Program-made: the position numbers and the translations under genes | Assembly: GCA_942490825.1 (NCBI GenBank) | Contig: CALNYG010000004.1 | Location: forward strand, 116,888 to 180,887 | From: Candidatus Moraniibacteriota bacterium | GTDB taxonomy: Bacteria > Patescibacteriota > Minisyncoccia > Moranbacterales > GCA-2747515 | Direction: 5' to 3' | Length of the DNA: 64,000 bases | Shown: piece by piece, positions 10,434-64,000 of the stretch | Layout of the letters: each line of letters begins with the position of its first letter | Numbering within the stretch: the first letter of the stretch is position 1 | Notes under the pieces: model-generated | Database searches by the model: none | What the model saw: the letters and a program-made list of their open reading frames with translations, nothing else | Told to the model about the DNA's origin: nothing

Positions 10434-12146
10434 CTATTCACTAAAAACTATCTTTTCAATAAATTTTCTAGCATCTTCTAATTCTGAATCACTAGCCAAA
10501 TCTTTTGTTTCTAAAACTTCATTTACCCACTTTGGACCATGATTACCGATACTTTTTACAAAACGTTCTAATTCACCAAGTTCAACAATAAATAATCCAC
10601 TTTTTTCAAATATTTCTTGTAACTCATTAAATTTACTAGTTGGATCACCTGACGGAACAGAGCACTTGCCGTCATCTTTAGCAATTTGCCATGGTGATTT
10701 TACCTTAATGATTTTTCTTATCTCTTTGGCGTCTTTAACAGAAATTATATCATTTGATATTCCATCAATATAATCTTTAATATTTTTTTCTAAACAATCT
10801 TTTCTTAAATTATCTACTGACTTTGAATCTATACTATTTTTAATCAACTTCCAATTACTTTCAACACTAGACCATTCTATCTCCAATGACTCAACAATCC
10901 CCTTTAATGGATTTTGATTATTCAAAACATCAAAATCAACGATCACTGAAACTGGCACTCCTATCTTTTTTAAAGCATTAACTACCGTACTTACCCTATC
11001 TTTACCTCCACAATGAACAAATAATAGATCTGTAGTATAATCATCCCTCTCCTCACAAATAGAATCTAATATCGCTGAATAAAACTTACAATCAGAATCA
11101 CTTTCACAAACGATTACTTTTTTATGAAATAAACCACTTAAAATATTTGAATACTTTAAAATAGGATCTTCCCATACATCTTTAACACCTTCATTATCTA
11201 ATTCACAAATATTATTTACATTTCCTTCTCTATTAATTCTAATTATTTTAACATTAGAATCCTTCTCATCTAACAAACCCTTTAAAAAATCCTCACTGTG
11301 AGTTGAAATAAAAACTTGTTTATCCTTTGTTAAACTTTGAGAAAGCATTTTACCTAGTAATTTTGCTTGAGGTGGATGTAAAAAAGCTTCTGGCTCATCT
11401 ATTAAAAATACAGATTTATAAGAAATTATCATATTAAGTAAAATTCCTACAAAACTTTTCATACCGTCTCCTTGTTCATGTAAAAAAGGCAATTTATCCA
11501 ATTTTTCATTATATTCATTTGAAATTCTATCATTTTCTTTAGTATATTCAATTTTTTCTCCAACATGTAACGGTATCTGATTTCCAGCTCTATAATTTAA
11601 AATAAGACACTCACCAAAAGATTTTTTAAAATAATCATTAATTTCATCTTGCAAATTCTCATCTTTATATAAAAAGTGTATCGGATGTTGCGGTTGTTCT
11701 TTAAAACCAATACTATTAGTTGGACCAACCATACCAAGACGATTTTGAGTATCAATAAAAGAAATAAAAATATTACTTAGCTCTCTTATTCCTTCCGCAT
11801 AACCGTTATAGTAACTTCTTATATTATTTTCATGTAAACTAAACTGATAACCTTCATATGTCTTAAAAGAATCTGCTCCGTATTTTTCTTCTGAAAATGA
11901 TTTTAAAAAATTAATAAAATTGTCATCGTTTCCTCTTTTGGAAATATTAATATTTTTAACTACTATTCCTGCATTTTCTGTGCTCGGATTATTTATAATT
12001 TTTTCTCTGATATTTTTTAAAACAACACTTTTACCTGAATTATTAGGACCAACAAAAACTACAGTACTATTCTCTTCAAGTATTATTTCATTACCATCAT
12101 TAAAAACTATTTTATCAACAAAAAAACTAAATTCATTATTTGACAT
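10434..12146 (-). CDS. OLD-family-like ATPase with a C-terminal Toprim/DUF4435-like nuclease domain
   Basis: Walker A FVGPNNSGKS, signature-like QGDGMKSF, Walker B VFLIDEPEAFLHP and H-loop ISTHSEDF. The C-terminal part has VIVCESDSDCKFY (Toprim Glu), HCGGKD and VIVDFDVL (DxD). Confidence 0.65.
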   Translation of the reverse strand: MSNNEFSFFVDKIVFNDGNEIILEENSTVVFVGPNNSGKSVVLKNIREKIINNPSTENAGIVVKNINISKRGNDDNFINFLKSFSEEKYGADSFKTYEGYQFSLHENNIRSYYNGYAEGIRELSNIFISFIDTQNRLGMVGPTNSIGFKEQPQHPIHFLYKDENLQDEINDYFKKSFGECLILNYRAGNQIPLHVGEKIEYTKENDRISNEYNEKLDKLPFLHEQGDGMKSFVGILLNMIISYKSVFLIDEPEAFLHPPQAKLLGKMLSQSLTKDKQVFISTHSEDFLKGLLDEKDSNVKIIRINREGNVNNICELDNEGVKDVWEDPILKYSNILSGLFHKKVIVCESDSDCKFYSAILDSICEERDDYTTDLLFVHCGGKDRVSTVVNALKKIGVPVSVIVDFDVLNNQNPLKGIVESLEIEWSSVESNWKLIKNSIDSKSVDNLRKDCLEKNIKDYIDGISNDIISVKDAKEIRKIIKVKSPWQIAKDDGKCSVPSGDPTSKFNELQEIFEKSGLFIVELGELERFVKSIGNHGPKWVNEVLETKDLASDSELEDARKFIEKIVFSE

Positions 12147-12230: not shown

Positions 12231-13325
12231 CTACTTCAAAGGAATATTAGCCTCATTCTCCACAAGAACCTCCTGTAAGTTCTCCAAATCCTCCAAAACA
12301 ATCCCCGTCCCCCGAGCAACCGCCGTCAAAGGATCATCCATCATCACCACAGGAATCTCAGTCTCACTCGCAATCAATTTACTCAAATCACGAACCAAAC
12401 CACCACCACCAGCCAAAATAATCCCCCGCTGCATAATATCAGCCAAAAGCTCCGGCGGAGTCTCCTCAATAATAGTCTTAATAGAATTAATAATAACCCG
12501 AATCGAACGAGACATCGCTTCTCGAATATCAACATCAGTAATCTTAACTTTCTTCGGCAATCCAGTAACCAAGTCACGACCACGAACATCCATAAATAAT
12601 TCCTTCTCCTGCGGAAAGGCATTCCCAATCGAAATCTTAATTTCCTCAGCTGTCCTCTCACCAACCAATAAATTGAACTCATCACGCATATATCTTACAA
12701 TGTCCTCATTCATCTCATCACCAGCCGTACGCAAAGAACGTGCCACTACAATACCACCCAAAGAAATAACAGCAATCTCACTCGTCCCCCCACCAATATC
12801 CACAATCATATTTCCACCAGCGTCAGTAACAGGCAAACGTGCCCCAATCGAAGCCGCCATCGGCTCATCAATCAAATATGCTTCTCTAGCACCAGCATTC
12901 ATAGCTGCATCAATTACCGCTCGCTTTTCCACCTCTGTAACTCCCGAAGGAATACCAATCAAAACTCTCGGTCGCACAAAAACAGAAGAAGACTTTTTCT
13001 TAACTTTATCAATAAAATATTTAAGCATTTTCTCAGTCACCTCGAAATCGCTGATAACACCATCAACCAAAGGTCGACTCGCTACAATATGAGCAGGCGT
13101 TTTTCCAACCATCTTTCTCGCCTCCGTTCCAATTGCTAAAATTTGATCTGTTTTGGTATTAATCGCTACAACTGATGGTTCATTGATAATAATTCCACTT
13201 CCACTTAAATAAACTAAAGTATTTGCTGTCCCCAAATCTATTCCAATATCCTTTGAAAGATTTCCAAAAAACTTTCCACTCAATCTTTTGTAAATGTTTT
13301 TTAAAAATGTAATTATTTTTCCCAT
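12231..13325 (-). CDS. mreB: rod-shape determining protein MreB
   Basis: Actin-fold motifs DIGIDLGTANTLVY, VDIGGGTSEIAV and ILAGGGGL. I prefer the ATG at 13325 (365 aa) over 13415. Confidence 0.93.
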   Translation of the reverse strand: MGKIITFLKNIYKRLSGKFFGNLSKDIGIDLGTANTLVYLSGSGIIINEPSVVAINTKTDQILAIGTEARKMVGKTPAHIVASRPLVDGVISDFEVTEKMLKYFIDKVKKKSSSVFVRPRVLIGIPSGVTEVEKRAVIDAAMNAGAREAYLIDEPMAASIGARLPVTDAGGNMIVDIGGGTSEIAVISLGGIVVARSLRTAGDEMNEDIVRYMRDEFNLLVGERTAEEIKISIGNAFPQEKELFMDVRGRDLVTGLPKKVKITDVDIREAMSRSIRVIINSIKTIIEETPPELLADIMQRGIILAGGGGLVRDLSKLIASETEIPVVMMDDPLTAVARGTGIVLEDLENLQEVLVENEANIPLK

Positions 13326-13439
13326 AGTTTCTATATAAAATAAACGGTCAATATTCTTATTATGCCTTATTTTAAAGCTTTTGAAAAGGGTTTGTATATT
13401 TTTATTCCAAAACAAATTTTTCCAAATCTTTCTTTTCCT

Positions 13440-14093
13440 TCAAATACAAGGCATTTTTTCAATAAAATCTTTATAATCTTTTAGATCATAATCAAACTGC
13501 TCTAAAATAACATCTTTATCACACAACATTCCATTTCTTTTTCCAAGATAATCTAAAAGACTAGAATATTTCCAATTTTTATTTTTGCCTCCATGAATGA
13601 AATGATTTTGATTTACATAAGCAGATAGATACAAAAGATATTCATTTGAATCAATGTGAATTGACTTGAATTTTCCTTGAAAAAGTGAGCCTGAACGTTT
13701 GTGTTTTTTGTTAAAATACATCGTGTAAGAAGTTCCTAATTTCTGCATAAATCTTTCTACACCCTTATCTGCGTTTTGTTTCAAAATAAAATGATAATGA
13801 TTTGGATTTAAACAATATGCAACAAATTCAACAAGTTTATTCCTACTCTTAAGTTGTTCTTTGAAATTATTTTCAAACACTCCAAGGTTCGACCTTCGGG
13901 GATCCGAAGGTCGAACCTTTTCACGTTGATAATCTCTATAAAGTTGCATCAATCCATTGTTTTCATCATTCAACAAATTCATATTCAAGATAAATCTTTT
14001 GTAATCATCTTCATCCATAAAAACGTCCCTTTTATCAACACCTCGATTATATATATGATAGAATTCTCCATTTACAAATTCTGTTTTTCTCAT
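13440..14093 (-). CDS. REP-associated tyrosine transposase-like protein (RAYT / IS200-like Y1 HUH family)
   Basis: FYHIYNRG, the HUH motif in AYCLNPNHYHFIL, YTMYFNKKHKRSGSLFQGKFKS, catalytic-Tyr region YLLYLSAYVNQN, and WKYSS. I prefer the ATG at 14093; the ORF-track start at 14117 is a TTG. The stop codon is TGA. Confidence 0.85.
   Translation of the reverse strand: MRKTEFVNGEFYHIYNRGVDKRDVFMDEDDYKRFILNMNLLNDENNGLMQLYRDYQREKVRPSDPRRSNLGVFENNFKEQLKSRNKLVEFVAYCLNPNHYHFILKQNADKGVERFMQKLGTSYTMYFNKKHKRSGSLFQGKFKSIHIDSNEYLLYLSAYVNQNHFIHGGKNKNWKYSSLLDYLGKRNGMLCDKDVILEQFDYDLKDYKDFIEKMPCI
13884..13919. repeat. perfect 36-nt palindrome (16-bp arms, 4-nt loop) inside the RAYT-like ORF
   Basis: AAGGTTCGACCTTCGG-GGAT-CCGAAGGTCGAACCTT. 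It is a GC-rich island in an AT-rich gene and is translated in frame as KVRPSDPRRSNL. Confidence 0.95.
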
Positions 14094-14108
14094 AAAAAAA
14101 TTTAAATC

Positions 14109-14144
14109 AAAACTCAATCTTCAAAAACCCAAAGATTGAGTTTT
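14109..14144 (-). terminator. terminator-like hairpin after leuS
   Basis: AAAACTCAATCTT / AAGATTGAGTTTT 12-13 bp stem between the leuS stop (14160) and the RAYT ATG (14093). Confidence 0.5.
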
Positions 14145-14159
14145 AAAATAACTAAACCC

Positions 14160-17036
14160 CTAAACAACAATATTCAATAATCTTCCTTTCACAAAAATAA
14201 CTTTTCGAATTTCTTTACCTTCAATATGATTTTTAACCTTTTCACTTTCCAAAGCTTTTATCTTTACATCTTCTTCAGAAATTTCCGCTTCCACTTTAAT
14301 TTTATCGCGAAGTTTACCATTCACCTGAACGATTAATTCAATTACATCATCTTTAATCATTTCAGGATTAAATTCTGGCCATTCCGCCAAAAATATTGAT
14401 TTTTCATTTTTTAAAACTTCTTGCCAAATTTCTTCAGTCATATGCGGAGCAAACGGTGCAAGTAAAATCAAAAAGTTTTCCAAAGCAGCTTTCGGCAATT
14501 TTTCATGTTTTAACGCCTCATTCACAAAAATCATCATTTGAGAGATCGCTGTGTTAAAACTAAGCTTCTCAACATCTTCCGTAACTTTTTTAATAGTTTT
14601 ATGCAAAGCTGATTTAATTTCTTTCGTAACATCATCACACTTCCCCGCTTCACAATTAATCAATTCTTTCTCTGTACAAACTTTCCAAACTTTTTCTAGA
14701 AATCTATAAACTCCAACAATATTATCTTCATTCCAAACAACATCATCCTCAAGTGGTGCCGCAAACATCATATAACTTCGAACCGCATCCGCTCCAAATC
14801 TTTTCACCATTTCATTTGGATTAATCACATTTCCCTTTGACTTTGACATTTTCACACCCTCTTTATCTAAAACCATTCCTTGATGTCGTAACTTCACAAA
14901 TGGTTCATCAAAATCAATCAAGCCAATTTTTTTCATCGCTTTCACAAAAAATCTTGCATATAAAAGATGCATGTAAGTATGTTCCGCTCCGCCAATATAA
15001 ATATCTATCGGAAACCATTGTTTCAATTTTTCCGCTGAACAAAATTCGTTTTCGTTTTCTGTATCTGGATAACGTAAAAAATACCAAGCTGAATCCACAA
15101 AAGTATCCATCGTATCAACTTCTGGAGTCCAACCTTTTCCGAAGAGTTTTTCCACTCGCTCATGCAATTCTTTTGAGTTTTTCAACGGTGCTTCACCAGT
15201 CGGCACAAAATCTACATCTTCTGGCAAAGTCCATGGTAAATTTTCTTCACCAACAAATTTCGCCTCGCCCTCTGGTGAATAAACAATCGGAATCGGACAA
15301 CCCCAATATCTCTGTCGTGAAACAGACCAATCTCGTAATCGATAAGTTGAAGTCATTTCTCCACCAACAAATTCTGTGATTTTAGTTTTTGCTTCGTCTG
15401 AACTCATTCCGTCGAATTTTTCTGAATTAACTAAAATTCCTTTGTCTGAAAATATAATGTTATTAACAAGCTCATCCCACACAAATAAAAGACCTGGTGC
15501 TGTTAAATTATTTTTGATTTCGTCCTTATTCACCCAAACTATATCATGCTTTCTTTTTTCCTCCTCAATAATATCAATACATTCATCATTTTCTAATTCG
15601 AAATAAAAAGTTCTAAAATGAGCTAGCCTATTCACATTTTTTGGAACGTGAAAAAACTTCGCGTCAAGTTTACTTAATTCTTTAATTAGCTTTAAATTTT
15701 TATAGCCAGTCTCTTCTAGAACTTCCATTCTAGCTGCTTCTTCTGCTGTTTGTCCTTTTTCTATTCCGCCAGTAATAAATGTAGACCAATCAACTTTCTT
15801 CCACTTTAAAATAAGATATTTTTCTTCAGACCAATGCTTAACTATAGCTGTTATAGCATTTCTCTCAACAATTTCTTCATTATCACGAAAGGCATCATCT
15901 CCAGTATCTCTAGTAAAAATTGGTGCAACAACCTGCTTAACTTCTAAATCAAACTTCTTCGCAAACTCAAAATCCCTTTCATCATGTGCAGGTACCGCCA
16001 TAATTGCCCCAGTCCCATAACCCGCCAAAACATAATCCGCAATAAAAACAGGAATTGCCTCACCATTCGCAGGATTAATCGCTTTAATACCTTTCAATTC
16101 AACACCAGTTTTTTCTTTGCTTTCCATTCGATCAAGCTCAGATTTTTTTCTAGTTTCTTCTTGATATTTCTCAACCTCATCATAATTGGAAATTGAAAAT
16201 TGTAAATTGGAAATTAATTCATGTTCTGGAGCCAAAACCATATAAGTCACACCAAAAAGCGTATCCGGACGAGTCGTAAAAACCTCAATCTCCAAATTAC
16301 TATCATTTGAAACGCGATCAATCGACGCTTCTACTTTAAATTTAATTTTAGCACCCTCTGACTTTCCGATCCAAGCCTTTTGATTCTTTTTCGTATGTTC
16401 AGGCCAATCAACTTTATCCAAATCATCAATTAACTCATCCGCAAAATCCGTAATCTTAAAAAACCAACCTGGAACATCCCTCTGTTCAATTTCAGTTTTA
16501 CAACGCTCACATTTTCCACCTTCAACCTGTTCATTCGCAATTCCAGTATTACAACTCGAACACCAATTAATCATATCCGTTTTCTGAACAACTAAATCAT
16601 TCTCAAAAAATTTCCCAAACAAAAATTGCGTCCATTTATAATAAGAAGGATCCGAAGTATAAACCAAATGATCCAAATCATGCCCCAAACCAAGCATTCG
16701 CATCTGTTCCAAATAATTATCAGTATTAACTTTGGTTGTCTCCTTTGGATGAACGCCTGTCTTAATCGCATAATTTTCCGCAGGCAAACCGAAAGAATCA
16801 AATCCTTGTGGATGCAACACATTATATCCCTGCATTTTTTTGAATCGATAAATAATATCTGAAGCCGTGTAAGATTCGGTGTGTCCCATGTGCAAACCAT
16901 CCCCAGACGGATACGGAAACATATCCAAAACATAATAATTCTTTTTCTCAGAATTCTCCTCAACTTTATTCAAATCTTCTTCTCGCCACTTTTCCTGCCA
17001 CTTTTTTTCTATATTTTTGTGCGTATATTTTTCCAT
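14160..17036 (-). CDS. leuS: leucyl-tRNA synthetase with an inserted Nudix-like domain
   Basis: HIGH motif (GLHMGH), KMSKS, CP1 editing motifs TTRPDTLFG and GTGAIMAVPAHDERDFEFA, and YRLRDWSVSRQRYWGCPIP. It is 958 aa, longer than typical because of a roughly 140-aa insertion at residues ~385-530. Confidence 0.95.
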   Translation of the reverse strand: MEKYTHKNIEKKWQEKWREEDLNKVEENSEKKNYYVLDMFPYPSGDGLHMGHTESYTASDIIYRFKKMQGYNVLHPQGFDSFGLPAENYAIKTGVHPKETTKVNTDNYLEQMRMLGLGHDLDHLVYTSDPSYYKWTQFLFGKFFENDLVVQKTDMINWCSSCNTGIANEQVEGGKCERCKTEIEQRDVPGWFFKITDFADELIDDLDKVDWPEHTKKNQKAWIGKSEGAKIKFKVEASIDRVSNDSNLEIEVFTTRPDTLFGVTYMVLAPEHELISNLQFSISNYDEVEKYQEETRKKSELDRMESKEKTGVELKGIKAINPANGEAIPVFIADYVLAGYGTGAIMAVPAHDERDFEFAKKFDLEVKQVVAPIFTRDTGDDAFRDNEEIVERNAITAIVKHWSEEKYLILKWKKVDWSTFITGGIEKGQTAEEAARMEVLEETGYKNLKLIKELSKLDAKFFHVPKNVNRLAHFRTFYFELENDECIDIIEEEKRKHDIVWVNKDEIKNNLTAPGLLFVWDELVNNIIFSDKGILVNSEKFDGMSSDEAKTKITEFVGGEMTSTYRLRDWSVSRQRYWGCPIPIVYSPEGEAKFVGEENLPWTLPEDVDFVPTGEAPLKNSKELHERVEKLFGKGWTPEVDTMDTFVDSAWYFLRYPDTENENEFCSAEKLKQWFPIDIYIGGAEHTYMHLLYARFFVKAMKKIGLIDFDEPFVKLRHQGMVLDKEGVKMSKSKGNVINPNEMVKRFGADAVRSYMMFAAPLEDDVVWNEDNIVGVYRFLEKVWKVCTEKELINCEAGKCDDVTKEIKSALHKTIKKVTEDVEKLSFNTAISQMMIFVNEALKHEKLPKAALENFLILLAPFAPHMTEEIWQEVLKNEKSIFLAEWPEFNPEMIKDDVIELIVQVNGKLRDKIKVEAEISEEDVKIKALESEKVKNHIEGKEIRKVIFVKGRLLNIVV

Positions 17037-32991: not shown

Positions 32992-33076
32992 AAAAATAGA
33001 TATTTAGATTATTAGACTTTTAGTGTTTTAATTTTTTTACTAACAAACCCATAAAAATTCGCATACGCTCCCAAAC

Positions 33077-33164
33077 ATGTCATTCCGGAAAATATATTTT
33101 CTTTTGTAGAAACGTCGATTTATCGCGTTTTATAGATAGAAAATAATTTATCCGGAATCTACAC
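33077..33164. repeat. ATGTCATT hairpin module (single)
   Basis: ATGTCATTCCGGAAAATATATTTTCT-[loop]-AGAAAATAATTTATCCGGAATCTACAC. Confidence 0.85.
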
Positions 33165-33205
33165 TTAAAATTTTCTCAAACTAAAAAAATATAGTTTCAA
33201 TAAAT

Positions 33206-35179: not shown

Positions 35180-35234
35180 ATTTTTTTTATTAATTATTAT
35201 TTAAATTATTTTAATTTACACAAGCTACCAAGAC

Positions 35235-35405
35235 ATGTCATTCCGGAAAATATATTTTCTTTTCGAACGAAGTGAGAAATTAGAAAATAATTTATCCGGA
35301 ATCTATACCTAAAATTTTTTATATCTTAAAGTGTAGATTCCGGATAAACTAATTTGTATTCAATCGCTATCGCTCTTGAACAAATTATGTCTTCCGGAAT
35401 GACAT
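35235..35405. repeat. 171-bp double-hairpin element with ATGTCATT / AATGACAT termini
   Basis: Left hairpin at 35235-35307 (ATTCCGGAAAATATATTTTCT...AGAAAATAATTTATCCGGAAT). Right hairpin at 35331-35405 (ATTCCGGATAAACTAATTTGT...ACAAATTATGTCTTCCGGAAT). The outer termini are inverted repeats. Confidence 0.9.
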
Positions 35406-35438
35406 AATGTAAAGCGAATTACAAACCATCAATCAATT

Positions 35439-36863: not shown

Positions 36864-36939
36864 AAAAAACTTTAACAAAATTATTTTTCCTATCTCTAAA
36901 ATACTAAAAATATATACCCCTCTAAATTTCACAGGCCAT

Positions 36940-37279
36940 CAAAAGATAATCTATAAGCTGGATTCTGTCGAGAATAGTGATTTACCTTGTTTATATGTTG
37001 CCATATAAATCCTCGCGACTCACCCCACACCCACAATTTAAATATAAATTATGGGTGTGGGGTACGGTCTTGCACTTAAGTAAGGATTTAGCCGTTTCAC
37101 CTTCCATGTTTCCACAGAAGCTTATCCCGAAGGATAGATCAGAGCTTTCGCGCCAATCCGTCTCTGCTCGCACCTCATGGGTCACCCCAGACGGGAGTTA
37201 CCCGCTACCTCGCTGTCTTCGTAAAAAAAAGACAAGTGTCCAGACTTTCCTCTCCGTAGAGCCACTATTTAATCATCTT
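36940..37279 (-). ncRNA. rnpB: RNase P RNA, bacterial type A
   Basis: The minus strand carries GGAGAGGAAAGTCTGGACAC (CR-I), GGAAGGTGAAACGGC and GACAGAATCCAGCTTAT (CR-V). P1 pairs AGAUGAUU with GAUUAUCU. The region is a local GC-rich island, and the ends are approximate. Confidence 0.85.
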
Positions 37280-37536
37280 TTAATGGACAATATTATTTAG
37301 AGTATTATTTTTAACTGTGGTTATTATACAATAAATTTAACGAAAAATAAAGGAAAAGTTGATTGACTTTTTAATCTCTCTATTGAGTTGAATACAATAT
37401 TTTAAAAGTTCAGATTTAATTTTAAAATTGAAAAAAAATATAAATCATTTAATTTATAAAAAATTTTCTATAAAATTTCTAGTCTACCAACTCTTTATTC
37501 TTATTAATGTTGCTGAAAAGCTGGTATTTAAAAAGT

Positions 37537-40617: not shown

Positions 40618-40780
40618 AAAGTGCTCGCCGCACGGGCTTTTCTGAACAAGGGGTCATGACCCCTTGTTCAGATTCTAAAAATTTTCTGTCATTCTGAACG
40701 GATTTATTTTTTTCAGAAAAAATATAGTAGTGAAGTCTGCCTATCGGCAGATAGGAATCCCCCACAGAGAATCACAAAAC
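40618..40780 (+). repeat. composite repeat with GC-box copy 5, a 32-nt perfect palindrome, a GTCATTCTGAACG hairpin module and a nested 20-nt mini-palindrome
   Basis: GC-box at 40618-40641. The palindrome TCTGAACAAGGGGTCA|TGACCCCTTGTTCAGA is at 40641-40672. CTGTCATTCTGAACG...GTGAAG[TCTGCCTATCGGCAGATAGG]AATCCCCC has the bracketed insert at 40736-40755. The whole block is colinear with 51077-51201. Confidence 0.9.
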
Positions 40781-54148: not shown

Positions 54149-54651
54149 ATAAAAAGATTAGAAAATAATGATGATGCAAATATAGACAATAAAACCAGTA
54201 TAATTCCTGAAATAACTGAGCCAATTGCTAAAAGTGGAATCGCCTTTTTGAAAGGAATATCGAAAATACTAGCCGCCACTGCTCCAGTTACAATCCCTGT
54301 AAATGGCAACGGAATTGCCACAAAAGCTATCAAAGCGAAAGCTCCCCACTTTTCAAATTTATCAATATTTTTTGTTTGAATTCGGTGAATATATTTTTTC
54401 CAAATTTTATTTAACCATTCAATTTTCTTTAGGAAAAAATCGAATATATTATCTACAAAAACAAACGTTAAAATCCCCACTAAAACATTACCTAAAATTG
54501 AGTAGATAAAGGCTGCAAATGGATTCATTTCATATCCTATGATTGCTACAGGAATTGAAGCTCTTATTTCTGTAATTGGTATCATTGCGAGTAGGAATGT
54601 TGCCCACTCATGCGACAAATTTGAAACTGATTCTATAATTATTTCTTTCAT
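54145..54651 (-). CDS. small multidrug-export-like membrane protein (COG2426/Sm_multidrug_ex family)
   Basis: LAMIPITEIRASIPVAI pattern with 4-5 helices. It overlaps tpiA by 4 nt. Confidence 0.45.
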   Translation of the reverse strand: MKEIIIESVSNLSHEWATFLLAMIPITEIRASIPVAIIGYEMNPFAAFIYSILGNVLVGILTFVFVDNIFDFFLKKIEWLNKIWKKYIHRIQTKNIDKFEKWGAFALIAFVAIPLPFTGIVTGAVAASIFDIPFKKAIPLLAIGSVISGIILVLLSIFASSLFSNLFI

Positions 54652-54667
54652 TTATTTATTTAAAAAA

Positions 54668-55102
54668 TTAAAATCCAAAATCACTATAAAAGCTATCTTT
54701 ACGTATATTTTCAAGAGCCTGTTTAATAAAAGGAATTGTATTTTCTGGCAAGTCATCCAAATCAAACCAACTAACATCATCACACTTATTAGACTCTGCA
54801 ACTTTCGGTTCGCCTTTCCATTTTTTTGCCATAAAAAATACATCGATTCTATTACCATTTTGTTGTCTATGTAAAACATGTACTGCATCAAGACTATCTG
54901 AACATAAATCAATATCAACCTCTTCTTTAGCTTCCCTAATCATTGCATCTTTGTACGCCTCACCATCATCAACATGACCGCCGACCAAACTATAATTTCC
55001 ATCTTCATAACCAGTATTGTATCTTCGCAATAAAAGAATTTTATTATCTTTAACTAAGACAAGATAAATTCCTGGAGTTATTTTTAATCTCTCTTTAGAC
55101 AT
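54668..55102 (-). CDS. Nudix hydrolase (paralog A1)
   Basis: Canonical Nudix box GGHVDDGEAYKDAMIREAKEEVDI. About 85% aa identity to the ORF at 61372-61806. Confidence 0.88.
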   Translation of the reverse strand: MSKERLKITPGIYLVLVKDNKILLLRRYNTGYEDGNYSLVGGHVDDGEAYKDAMIREAKEEVDIDLCSDSLDAVHVLHRQQNGNRIDVFFMAKKWKGEPKVAESNKCDDVSWFDLDDLPENTIPFIKQALENIRKDSFYSDFGF

Positions 55103-57250: not shown

Positions 57251-57374
57251 AATGTTTTTTAATTTATTTTTTAGTTATTATCTTTATTTTACTAGATTTT
57301 AGAGAATGTGGGAAGTTTTATTTTATTAAATGTATTTTTTATAAGTATTCATTTTAATCTACTAACTACTAGAC

Positions 57375-57593
57375 ATATCATTCCGGAAAATATATTTTCT
57401 CCTTCAGAGCGTAGCGATGAAATAGAAAATAATTTATCCGGAATCTAGAAAACTTTAAGATTATAAATAAACTTTAATTTTTTATTTTTCTCTTGTAATT
57501 TCTAAATACCGGATAGACGAACCTGTCTGCCGAACAGGCAGGTTTAAATCAATCGCTACGCTCTTGAATAAATTCTGTCTTCCGGCATGACAT
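57375..57593. repeat. 219-bp double-hairpin element with ATATCATT / CATGACAT termini and a nested mini-palindrome
   Basis: Same architecture as 35235-35405. The right hairpin additionally contains ACCTGTCTGCCGAACAGGCAGGT (57521-57543), which is absent from the 35331-35405 copy. Confidence 0.9.
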
Positions 57594-57613
57594 ATTTGAG
57601 AGTTTTATGATCA

Positions 57614-60885: not shown

Positions 60886-61335
60886 TTAATTCCAACCAAA
60901 TTCACTGTAAAAATTATCATTCTTAATATTTTCAAGAACCTGAAGAACCTCTGGAGCAATATTTTCTGGTAAACTATTCAAGTCAAACCATGATAAATCA
61001 TCACATTTCTCTGGTTCCATGTTTTTAATCTCACCATCCCATTTTTCACTCACAAAAAATGCACTGACTCTTTCATTATTCTGAGTGATCCCAAAATCTC
61101 CATGTATCACATGAGCTACTTTTAAATTTTTTGATTCTAAATCAACTCCTATCTCTTCCTTTGCTTCCCTAATTACACATCGAGTAAAACTTTCTCCGAC
61201 TTTAACGTGTCCAGAAGGTAATGAATATTTGCCATTACAATACTTTTTATTATAACGTCTCGACATTAATACTTTCTTATCTTTTAATAAAATCAGATAT
61301 GACGCTGGAATTATTTTATGTCTTTCTTTTTTCAT
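60886..61335 (-). CDS. Nudix hydrolase (paralog B)
   Basis: Nudix box SGHVKVGESFTRCVIREAKEEIGV. About 50% identity to paralogs A1 and A2. Confidence 0.85.
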   Translation of the reverse strand: MKKERHKIIPASYLILLKDKKVLMSRRYNKKYCNGKYSLPSGHVKVGESFTRCVIREAKEEIGVDLESKNLKVAHVIHGDFGITQNNERVSAFFVSEKWDGEIKNMEPEKCDDLSWFDLNSLPENIAPEVLQVLENIKNDNFYSEFGWN

Positions 61336-61371
61336 ATTTTTTAAATTTAATTATTTTTATAAGTTCAAAAC

Positions 61372-61806
61372 TTAAAATCCAAAATCACTATAAAAAACTT
61401 CTTTCTTTATATTTTTAAGAGCTTGTTTTATAAAAGGAATTGTATTATCAGGTAAATTATCCATATCAAACCAACTAACATCATCACATTTTTCAGATTC
61501 TGCAACTCTAGGCTCACCAGTCCAATCATTTGCCATAAAAAATACATCGATTCTATTACCACTTTGTTGCCTATGCAATACATGCACAGCATTTAAATCT
61601 GCTGAATTTATTTCTATATCAGCTTCCTCTTTAGCTTCTCTAATCATCGCATCCTTATAAGCTTCACCATCATCAACATGTCCACCTACTAAACTATAAT
61701 TACCATCTTCGTATCCAGTATTATATCTTCTAAGTAAGAGAATTTTATTATCTTTTATTAAAACAAGATAAATTCCCGGAATAATTTTTAATCTTTCTTT
61801 AGACAT
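61372..61806 (-). CDS. Nudix hydrolase (paralog A2)
   Basis: GGHVDDGEAYKDAMIREAKEEADI. About 85% aa identity to 54668-55102. Confidence 0.88.
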   Translation of the reverse strand: MSKERLKIIPGIYLVLIKDNKILLLRRYNTGYEDGNYSLVGGHVDDGEAYKDAMIREAKEEADIEINSADLNAVHVLHRQQSGNRIDVFFMANDWTGEPRVAESEKCDDVSWFDMDNLPDNTIPFIKQALKNIKKEVFYSDFGF

Positions 61807-63737: not shown

Positions 63738-63850
63738 AAACTTAAGATTTTTATAATTTATATTTCGTTTACTAAATTTAAAAGTTTAATTACTTTATTA
63801 TAAACTCCACAATAGATATCGCATTGTAAGCTTACACTTTTTATAATTTC

Positions 63851-64000
63851 ATGTCATTCCGGAAGTTATAATTTTTTCAAGAGCGTAGCGATTGAATAAA
63901 AATTAATCTATCCGGAATCTCAACAAGCTTTCCTGACACTTAAAGAGATTCTGGAAAATAATTTTTCCGTTCTGCTACAAAATTATTTTCTGGAATAACA
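63851..64000. repeat. double-hairpin ATGTCATT element, right end cut by the window edge
   Basis: Left hairpin at 63851-63922 (ATGTCATTCCGGAAGTTATAATTTTT...AAAAATTAATCTATCCGGAAT). Right hairpin at 63946-64000 (ATTCTGGAAAATAATTTT...AAAATTATTTTCTGGAAT). Confidence 0.85.

Follow-up and report, generated by a model that had tools for sequence, protein, structure and literature searches.

A gene for a putative Y1/HUH single-strand DNA endonuclease lies on the minus strand of a 64,000-nucleotide stretch of Candidatus Moraniibacteriota DNA (contig CALNYG010000004.1, positions 116,888 to 180,887); this whole stretch is called the window here, and coordinates refer to it unless a relative's contig is named. 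The gene is an open reading frame (ORF) at 13440-14093 with an ATG start and a product of 217 aa, while an alternative TTG start at 14117 gives 8 more residues. It is placed between leuS and mreB and carries a GC-rich palindrome within its own coding sequence (CDS). What is most interesting in this locus is that palindrome, which we regard as the cognate hairpin of the encoded protein, its compensatory evolution in the lineage where the gene follows leuS, and a very large clade of similar systems, namely of the REPtron type described below, in the reduced genomes of the candidate phyla radiation (CPR).

The ORF encodes a RAYT-like protein

A preliminary description of this DNA, made from the letters alone, had read the ORF as a lone relative of the transposases associated with repetitive extragenic palindromes (REPs), namely the REP-associated tyrosine transposases (RAYTs). 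The motifs on which that reading was based (YHIYNRG, NPNHYHFIL, SGSLFQGKFKS, and YLSAYVNQN) were all recovered in the translation of 13440-14093, which is 100% identical to the database protein P0001. Comparison with the Pfam family Y1_Tnp (PF01797), which had been suggested as a check, gave a match over residues 84-163 with E=1.2e-8 and 35.5 bits, above the gathering cutoff of 23. The HUH motif H99-Y100-H101 in NPNHYHFIL is encoded at 13791..13799, and the candidate catalytic tyrosine, Y159 in YLSAYVNQN, at 13617..13619 (both on the minus strand); H99, H101, Y159, and N163 are invariant across the 26 sequences of our family alignment, A1.

An AlphaFold2 model computed from the family alignment (pLDDT, the predicted local distance difference test, of 81.6) showed the expected core of a strand-HUH-strand arrangement and a Tyr-bearing helix, with the HUH motif at the strand of residues 100-106 and Y159 in the helix of residues 150-161. 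Additional helices were predicted ahead of the HUH motif (a 45-residue insert), and so was a C-terminal helical domain of ~55 residues. When the model was compared with the Protein Data Bank (PDB) by Foldseek, the top match was 4er8_A, the E. coli RAYT in complex with a REP (E=3.3e-5, probability 1.00, target-normalised template-modelling score 0.67), and the TnpA structures of IS608, ISDra2, and IS200 ranked after it (E of 3e-3 to 1e-1 for IS608 and ISDra2). A profile of the family alignment, on the other hand, retrieved no Y1 protein from the PDB sequences at E<=1, only spurious ArsR matches; the clade is thus remote from all characterised Y1 proteins, and its link to RAYT required the fold search. 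The protein also had no NCBIfam IS200 match at E<=1, no TnpB was found by Pfam among the genes near the ORF, and tblastn revealed no second copy or fragment of the gene in the 64 kb. A RAYT-like protein, and not an ordinary IS200 TnpA, is therefore supported, in agreement with the earlier assignment, also as to the missing tnpB and the lack of IS ends.

A perfect palindrome lies within the ORF

The preliminary description missed what is the most telling feature of the gene. At 13884..13919, within the codons for K59-L70, the sequence reads AAGGTTCGACCTTCGG / GGAT / CCGAAGGTCGAACCTT, a palindrome (inverted repeat I19) that is 100% complementary in its 16-bp arms around a 4-nt centre and that is GC-rich amid a genome of ~30% G+C. 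Each arm furthermore holds a small hairpin, AAGGT-TCG-ACCTT, in the manner of a REP doublet, or REPIN-like unit. The palindrome is unique in the window and had 0 matches in 100 shuffles; no further copy or single unit was found outside the ORF in the 64 kb when up to 3 mismatches were allowed and patterns such as AAGGT..ACCTT and CGAAGG..CCTTCG were used. The residues that it encodes form the lowest-confidence stretch of the model and correspond to a loop. An internal transcription terminator was considered for this element and rejected, as no T-run follows the palindrome.

Homologues in Patescibacteria are accompanied by cognate hairpins

Homologous proteins, counted as clusters at 90% identity with E<=1e-5, formed at least 4959 clusters, all of ~210-240 aa and full length; the names, where given, were Moranbacteria, Parcubacteria, or Patescibacteria "transposase" or "RayT". 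When one genome from each GTDB species was scanned, at least 595 loci were confirmed, and the 79 loci kept from this set (L001-L079) were almost all labelled as Patescibacteria lineages. Several contigs (L018, L019, L020, L024, L035, L040, L041, and L054) are labelled Bdellovibrionales, Gammaproteobacteria, or Bathyarchaeia in public records, which are probably mislabels of bin or taxonomy.

The homologous genes were searched for perfect Watson-Crick hairpins, and a stem of 10-24 bp within the CDS was found in 51 of 76 genes, nearly always at one of two positions. In the protein alignment, site 1 is located between the first helix and the strand before HUH, which is the position of the window palindrome, and site 2 directly after the Tyr motif, where the window gene has no hairpin. 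The density of perfect hairpins was 1.35/kb within the genes versus 0.31/kb elsewhere, where many hairpins directly adjoin the gene. Indeed, when up to 150 nt around the 79 genes was included in a census, hairpins were present in the gene in 63 cases, upstream in 61 (typically ending 4-25 nt ahead of the ATG), and downstream in 55 (0-35 nt past the stop or overlapping it). The loop-proximal 7-mer of the in-gene hairpin was the same as that of the upstream copy in 40 of the 63 genes and as that of the downstream copy in 31. Each genome has its own hairpin sequence, for example ACTTGGAGGT, which takes up all four positions in L027, ACTTGGACAT, which does so in L047, and ACTTGGGAGT in L054. Within one genome, paralogues (L009/L017/L045 and L154a/b), which are ~50-60% identical, each have a hairpin of their own. 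The two Y1 genes of L154, for example, are divergent and situated 0.8 kb apart on one contig (890-1561 and 2351-3025 of that contig), and their site-1 doublet variants have the cores GGTTCGACC and GGCGAAGCC, respectively.

The cognate hairpin can be identified in these relatives because it flanks the gene, recurs inside it, and has one specific sequence per genome; judged in this way from sequence, the cognate hairpin of the window protein would be the in-ORF AAGGTTCGACCTTCGG palindrome. Homologues with no in-gene hairpin look intact and have correspondingly shorter loops at the two sites, so that the in-gene hairpins are in-frame insertions. GC-rich palindromes within such ORFs should accordingly be taken as features and not as assembly errors. 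In Moranbacteria-type relatives, the insertion at site 1 is a doublet, namely a long REPIN-like palindrome with a small hairpin in each arm. The hairpin feet in the clade, of the type CACTTGG/CCAAGTG or CC(A/T)AAGG, are fully paired. Doublets away from the gene were also noticed in L006, L012, L014, L015, L080, and L155, and overall 28 cognate copies were found more than 150 nt beyond the gene ends in 725 kb (0.039/kb), distributed over 20 of 78 loci. Distant relatives (30-48% identity), obtained from a metagenome scan with a single protein that yielded only proteins of <=48% identity, had flanking hairpins upstream in 23 of 48 cases and downstream in 16 of 48, while insertions at sites 1 and 2 were mostly absent; flanking hairpins are hence general, and the in-gene insertions are specific to the clade.

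A gene bracketed by its cognate hairpins is the layout known as a REPtron (PMC3733652, PMC6006769), to which the clade adds the in-gene copies. The term "lone" in the preliminary description is thus apt for the single copy in the window, while the family as a whole is typically arranged as REPtrons. As a separate observation, a close homologue, P0033 (L085/L086, 85-3818), is found beside a diversity-generating retroelement with an RVT_1 reverse transcriptase, bAvd, and Lcl_C target-like genes, and a second hairpin family (GGGAGCTCAACTCCC) is present just downstream of this homologue.

The hairpin-gene-hairpin layout of the relatives also resembles that of IS200, and the Pfam family to which the protein belongs is named "Transposase IS200 like"; it might hence be asked whether the ORF is an ordinary IS200/IS605 transposase in a mobile insertion sequence (IS). 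We rejected this candidate and consider it to have next to no chance of being correct, given that the window has neither tnpB nor hairpin ends of an IS, that the position after leuS is conserved (see below), and that paralogues in the same genome are divergent and have their own hairpins. The protein itself is also 217-225 aa long with a C-terminal domain, has Y---N instead of Y---Q, and is nearer to RAYT in fold.

The palindrome remains symmetric in the leuS-linked lineage

In five other genomes (L001, L004, L082, L151, and L152), the Y1 gene is likewise located directly downstream of leuS, which makes six leuS-linked orthologues with the window. The five are full length, and all of them have the in-gene palindrome but no matching flanks, as is the case in the window. 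Other close relatives sit after secY, after a Mur ligase, after a giant Peptidase_S74 protein, or beside a diversity-generating retroelement, and some of the relatives placed elsewhere than leuS carry flanking or dispersed doublets. The Y1 proteins of the leuS-linked orthologues are 62-71% identical to that of the window, and the LeuS proteins 46-55%, except for 76% in L151, where only a C-terminal fragment could be compared. Among the six genes, the nonsynonymous divergence (dN) was 0.19-0.32 and the synonymous divergence (dS) 0.97-2.5, which is saturated, with dN/dS of ~0.1-0.3. The conserved position and the dN/dS values together point to vertical inheritance under purifying selection, and the earlier impression of a domesticated single-copy gene is borne out in this respect.

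The palindromes of the leuS-linked orthologues differ from each other at many positions, and these differences are mirrored on the opposite arm. We examined this covariation in 17 distinct site-1 doublets aligned without gaps (set A3, from which two sequences that misaligned were left out). Standard pairs were formed in 96.2% of 340 cells, a percentage that is inflated by the choice of doublets with stems of >=12 bp; sliding the partner by 1-3 columns lowered the pairing to 22-56%. All 20 of the 20 pairs changed on both sides (58 cells), and one cell was changed on one side only, giving a G-U state. The mirrored differences and the lack of G-U states are independent of the selection for stem length. 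Furthermore, the central 4-mers were self-complementary in 14 of the 17 doublets (TCGA, CTAG, ATAT, AATT, CGCG, and AGCT), for which the chance is 1/16 each, and the elements are therefore full DNA palindromes and not stem-loops.

Given the predicted folding energy of -31.9 kcal/mol for the messenger RNA (mRNA) segment with the palindrome, and given the strong covariation, one might suppose that the palindrome acts as an mRNA hairpin in translation pausing, RNase III processing, or stability. This is improbable in our view: apart from the single G-U state in the 340 cells, the changes are strictly Watson-Crick, the self-complementary centres leave no loop in duplex terms, and the same sequence is found outside transcribed ORFs and in both orientations. 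These properties instead indicate an element that works at the level of DNA and not as an RNA fold. Selection on the protein gives no explanation of the symmetry either, because the palindrome-encoded peptide, for which disorder is predicted, shows no conservation. The symmetry is nonetheless kept while silent sites saturate, which implies that the palindrome is actively maintained by something.

One possible answer is that the palindrome is a neutral passenger, that is, that REP or REPIN copies are inserted or gene-converted into tolerant loops by a cis-preferring enzyme and that their symmetry is renewed from genomic copies. Several of the above results would fit, namely the identity of many in-gene hairpins to the flanking copies, the intact look of the hairpin-less homologues, the low model confidence of the loops into which the insertions fall, and the doublets away from the gene in some loci; the same reading was indeed given by Quentin et al. 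in 2018 for the insertions of subclass 2.4 (PMC6006769). For the six leuS-linked orthologues, however, no flanking or nearby donor copies were seen in the limited flank examined around each, and in all six the codon position of the palindrome has stayed the same despite the saturated silent divergence. We therefore regard the passenger as a serious but somewhat unlikely alternative. Our preferred reading is that the in-gene palindrome is kept either by selection for a self-recognition site (e.g., in autoregulation) or by copying from arm to arm.

An apparent frameshift affects the 3′ end of the window gene

Although the ORF at 13440-14093 is intact, its 3′ end is frameshifted after a run of A. 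In a three-frame translation compared with the C-terminus of A1, the reading frame of the family is lost at an A6 homopolymer (13454..13459, minus strand), where the family C-terminus needs A7. Past this run, the annotated frame ends with MPCI*, whereas another frame reads KNALYLKEKKDLEKFVLE*, the near-invariant family C-terminus, and stops at 13403-13405; one added A restores the frame. The out-of-frame remainder at 13403..13453 (minus strand, frame 2) codes for the conserved C-terminus NALYLKEKKDLEKFVLE* and includes the near-invariant K/Y/E columns. The copy may be decaying, or the frameshift may be a homopolymer error in the assembly.

It follows that the window copy could be a decaying relic, or pseudogene, of a former REPtron and inactive. 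The frameshift removes the near-invariant 17-residue C-terminus, both flanking hairpins and a hairpin at site 2 are missing, and an extra 7-residue insertion follows the palindrome in comparison with the orthologues, all of which would suit a relic. We nevertheless hold this to be unlikely, since the catalytic and invariant residues are all intact over 213 codons, dN/dS to the orthologues remains at ~0.1-0.3, and the orthologues are full length. The out-of-frame tail is, moreover, still perfectly readable, so that the frameshift must be very recent or an assembly error, which also counts against decay.

A probable domesticated enzyme and its hairpin

Taken together, it is likely that the ORF encodes a domesticated enzyme of the RAYT-type Y1/HUH kind, with which a hairpin co-evolves, that the in-ORF palindrome is maintained, and that the other repeats of the window are not its substrates. 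In this proposal, the protein would be a vertically inherited single-strand DNA endonuclease of the RAYT/TnpA_REP kind belonging to a large clade restricted to Patescibacteria, and each gene of the clade would co-evolve with one short, GC-rich, perfect hairpin that occupies the flanks, is sparsely dispersed, and has been accommodated in frame in two surface loops. The lineage of the window, fixed after leuS, would have lost the flanking copies, leaving only the doublet in the ORF that codes for the disordered loop K59-L70. When single-stranded, the palindrome would fold into a hairpin and be bound by the protein, and the HUH-bound metal together with Tyr159 would cut and rejoin the strand beside the hairpin. 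Such cutting and rejoining has been shown for TnpA_REP of E. coli, Stenotrophomonas, and Marinomonas (PMC8266576).

Besides the selection of the doublets for long stems, several points weigh against this proposal. Binding and cleavage of the hairpin by the window protein are presumed by analogy with the TnpA_REP proteins of E. coli, Stenotrophomonas, and Marinomonas. No hairpin matching the palindrome was found within 150 nt of either end of the Y1 gene, where only the terminator-like stem-loop of leuS is present, and the number of extra cognate copies in 63 kb was zero against ~2.4 expected at the average density of the family, a difference that is not significant alone. In the closest orthologue, L151, the stem has one mismatch near the apex, and the palindrome is hence not always perfect. 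The 3′ frameshift described above must also be counted here. The RAYT model of NCBIfam (NF047646, REP_Tyr_transpos), while being the best NCBIfam match and the sole notable one besides Y1_Tnp, scored 28.2 bits against a cutoff of 80; the tyrosine motif of the window protein, YVNQNH (YVNxN[NH] in the family), keeps the N at +4 but lacks the P of the class-2 motif Y---NP; and a GT[AG]G guide was noticed in none of the listed hairpins, the flanks having received no dedicated motif search. With no Y---NP, no GTAG guide, and a score below the NCBIfam cutoff, the clade is described here as working in the manner of a RAYT and is assigned to no described subclass.

A bolder proposal can be made for the leuS-linked lineage: the sole remaining cognate hairpin would be the one within the CDS of the enzyme itself, kept symmetric by selection, and gene and palindrome would form a self-contained module of enzyme plus hairpin. 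This is tentative and, in our estimation, rather doubtful. If it is true, the protein recognises its own gene, which it could bind as mRNA or while the DNA is single-stranded in replication or transcription, and its role could be self-regulation or the nicking and rejoining of the chromosome at one fixed place in the service of the host; such a domesticated RAYT would do entirely without a population of REPs.

Comparison with known systems

The best structural match, the E. coli TnpA_REP/RAYT (YafM; PDB 4ER8), shares the Y1/HUH fold with the window protein. Its REPtron also has in common with the clade a low copy number, a housekeeping-like vertical inheritance, the bracketing of the gene by cognate hairpins, and the co-evolution of protein and hairpin (PMC8266576, PMC5581495). 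The sequence identity of the window protein to the E. coli RAYT is, however, only 14%. The clade furthermore has Y---N[NH] instead of Y---NP, the 45-residue helical insert before HUH, and the C-terminal domain of ~55 residues; no bulge interrupts its perfect hairpins, a GTAG guide was not seen, the dispersed copies are few (0.039/kb), and REPs are missing from the flanks of the window copy.

TnpA_Y1 proteins were grouped into 12 subclasses by Quentin, Siguier, Chandler, and Fichant in 2018, and in-frame REPs within the tnpA_REP gene, generally between HuH and Y, were reported there as a unique feature of subclass 2.4 (PMC6006769). This subclass corresponds to group 4 of Bertels, occurs in Cyanobacteria and Bacteroidetes, and has "double foot" REPs (PMC6006769), whose two ends are fully paired, as is the case for the palindromes of our clade. 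The phenomenon of in-frame REPs is thus already known. What is new here is a variant in Patescibacteria that differs from subclass 2.4 in motifs, insertion sites, and host phylum: the motifs are NHYH, (L)FQG, and YVNxN[NH] in the clade but NH[IFV]H, WQ, and YIxNNP in subclass 2.4, and the insertions are located before HuH (site 1, K59-L70 in the window) or after the Y helix (site 2) and not between HuH and Y. Parcubacteria and Microgenomates are not mentioned in the text of PMC6006769, and our literature searches for REP/RAYT in Patescibacteria, CPR, or Parcubacteria retrieved no description, only chance co-occurrences and one mention of a KEGG label in an archaeal genome paper.

The TnpA proteins of IS200/IS605 elements (IS608 and ISDra2) share the catalytic core and a mode of recognition directed at sub-terminal hairpins in single-stranded DNA (PMC6006769). 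In contrast to the 217-225 aa of the window protein with its extra helices and Y---N, however, those of subclass 1.1 are core-only proteins of ~150 aa with Y---Q. Their elements have end hairpins, near-identical copies, and often tnpB; none of these is present in the window, nor were near-identical paralogues present in the sampled genomes. Short palindromes tolerated in frame in surface loops are also known as intragenic REPs and as the Rickettsia palindromic elements (PMC3733652). In our case, by contrast, the palindrome is hosted by the gene of its own putative mobilising enzyme, the insertion site is shared throughout a large clade, and in the leuS-linked lineage no copy was seen other than the one in the gene.

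Patescibacteria have genomes of ~1 Mb with little intergenic space, and the clade extends RAYT-like systems to these bacteria, counter to the expectation for large genomes. The reported trend is, namely, that non-IS Y1 genes favour large genomes (PMC6006769). What RAYTs contribute to their hosts, and why they are retained in single copy, is a standing question (PMC5581495, PMC8266576), to which the present clade is exceptionally well suited: its hairpins are very few and cluster at the gene, and one lineage appears to retain the in-ORF copy alone, with the gene under purifying selection and the palindrome symmetric. One protein and one 36-nt oligonucleotide would suffice to probe the recognition by a RAYT of a site within the gene that encodes it. 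The "transposase" labels on thousands of CPR genes, furthermore, probably mark domesticated genes and not active IS elements.

Other repeats of the window

The preliminary description had also seen the window as saturated with hairpin repeats and had linked the RAYT to them. Its ~20 units in three families are about right and the intergenic location is correct, while "saturated" is an overstatement, with only 9 perfect hairpins of stem >=10 bp in the 64 kb. Family A, GTGCTCGCCGCACGGGC and usually then TTTT, is present in 6-7 copies, all intergenic, on the plus strand, and with a stem of 4-5 bp; the motif search gave the sites 17130, 25067, 28868, 33209, 40621, 51080, and 63722, which often adjoin units of family B or C. 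Family B comprises AT-rich imperfect hairpins of ~80 nt (-20 to -28 kcal/mol) in intergenic DNA, which look MITE-like (miniature inverted-repeat transposable elements). Its heads, TGTCATTCYGRA, occur at 10 sites versus 1.4 expected, and its elements, sometimes in inverted pairs, were found at 33074-33165, 35232-35408, 57372-57596, and 63848-63925, with further heads at 1462, 28905, 40687, and 51128. A third family, C, has two intergenic copies adjoining family A units. At 40641-40672, between a family A and a family C unit, we also noticed a perfect palindrome of 16+16 with no spacer (TCTGAACAAGGGGTCA/TGACCCCTTGTTCAGA). With the gathering thresholds of Rfam, only RNase P was matched in the window, and no repeat family is a known RNA.

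The families are real, multi-copy, and intergenic, and family B folds into long hairpins, all of which would be compatible with their dissemination by the RAYT. This is very unlikely all the same: the in-ORF palindrome, the hairpin of the lineage, has no sequence in common with families A, B, and C, none of which flanks the gene; family A, with its 4-5 bp stem on one strand, is missing in 78 of the 79 related loci (L001-L079); and the cognate hairpin of the relatives is always at or inside the gene. From sequence comparison, we thus read the other repeat families of the window as probably not being substrates of the Y1 protein.

Neighbouring genes and features

The Y1 gene and both of its neighbours are on the same strand. 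The upstream neighbour, leuS with a NUDIX insert (14160..17036, minus strand; Pfam), precedes the Y1 gene also in L001, L004, L082, L151, and L152. This insert is a NUDIX hydrolase domain (Pfam E=1.6e-10) that follows the editing domain at residues 416-508 of LeuS, and alignments to the LeuS proteins of the relatives break at this region. Between leuS and the Y1 gene, at 14107..14146 on the minus strand, there is a terminator-like stem-loop (inverted repeat I14) that is unrelated to the cognate palindrome. The downstream neighbour is mreB (12231..13325, minus strand, extending to a TTG at 13415 in the ORF list; Pfam MreB_Mbl E=6e-139), beyond which are genes for a protein with an OLD-like ATPase and TOPRIM, an alanine racemase, and a class-V aminotransferase. 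The first of these, two genes from the Y1 gene at 10434-12146 (minus strand), encodes a protein of 570 aa with AAA_21/AAA_15 ATPase and OLD-like TOPRIM domains, an OLD-family nuclease of a kind known from anti-phage systems.

Farther away in the window, a bacterial class A RNase P RNA is encoded at 36938-37280 (minus strand, 114 bits). A direct repeat of 300 nt with 80% identity is present at 54641-54940 and 61345-61644, 6.7 kb apart, with a partial third copy near 60896, and probably reflects paralogous genes. The GC skew is negative in all 2-kb bins except two and the majority of the genes are on the minus strand, from which the window appears to be situated within one replichore.

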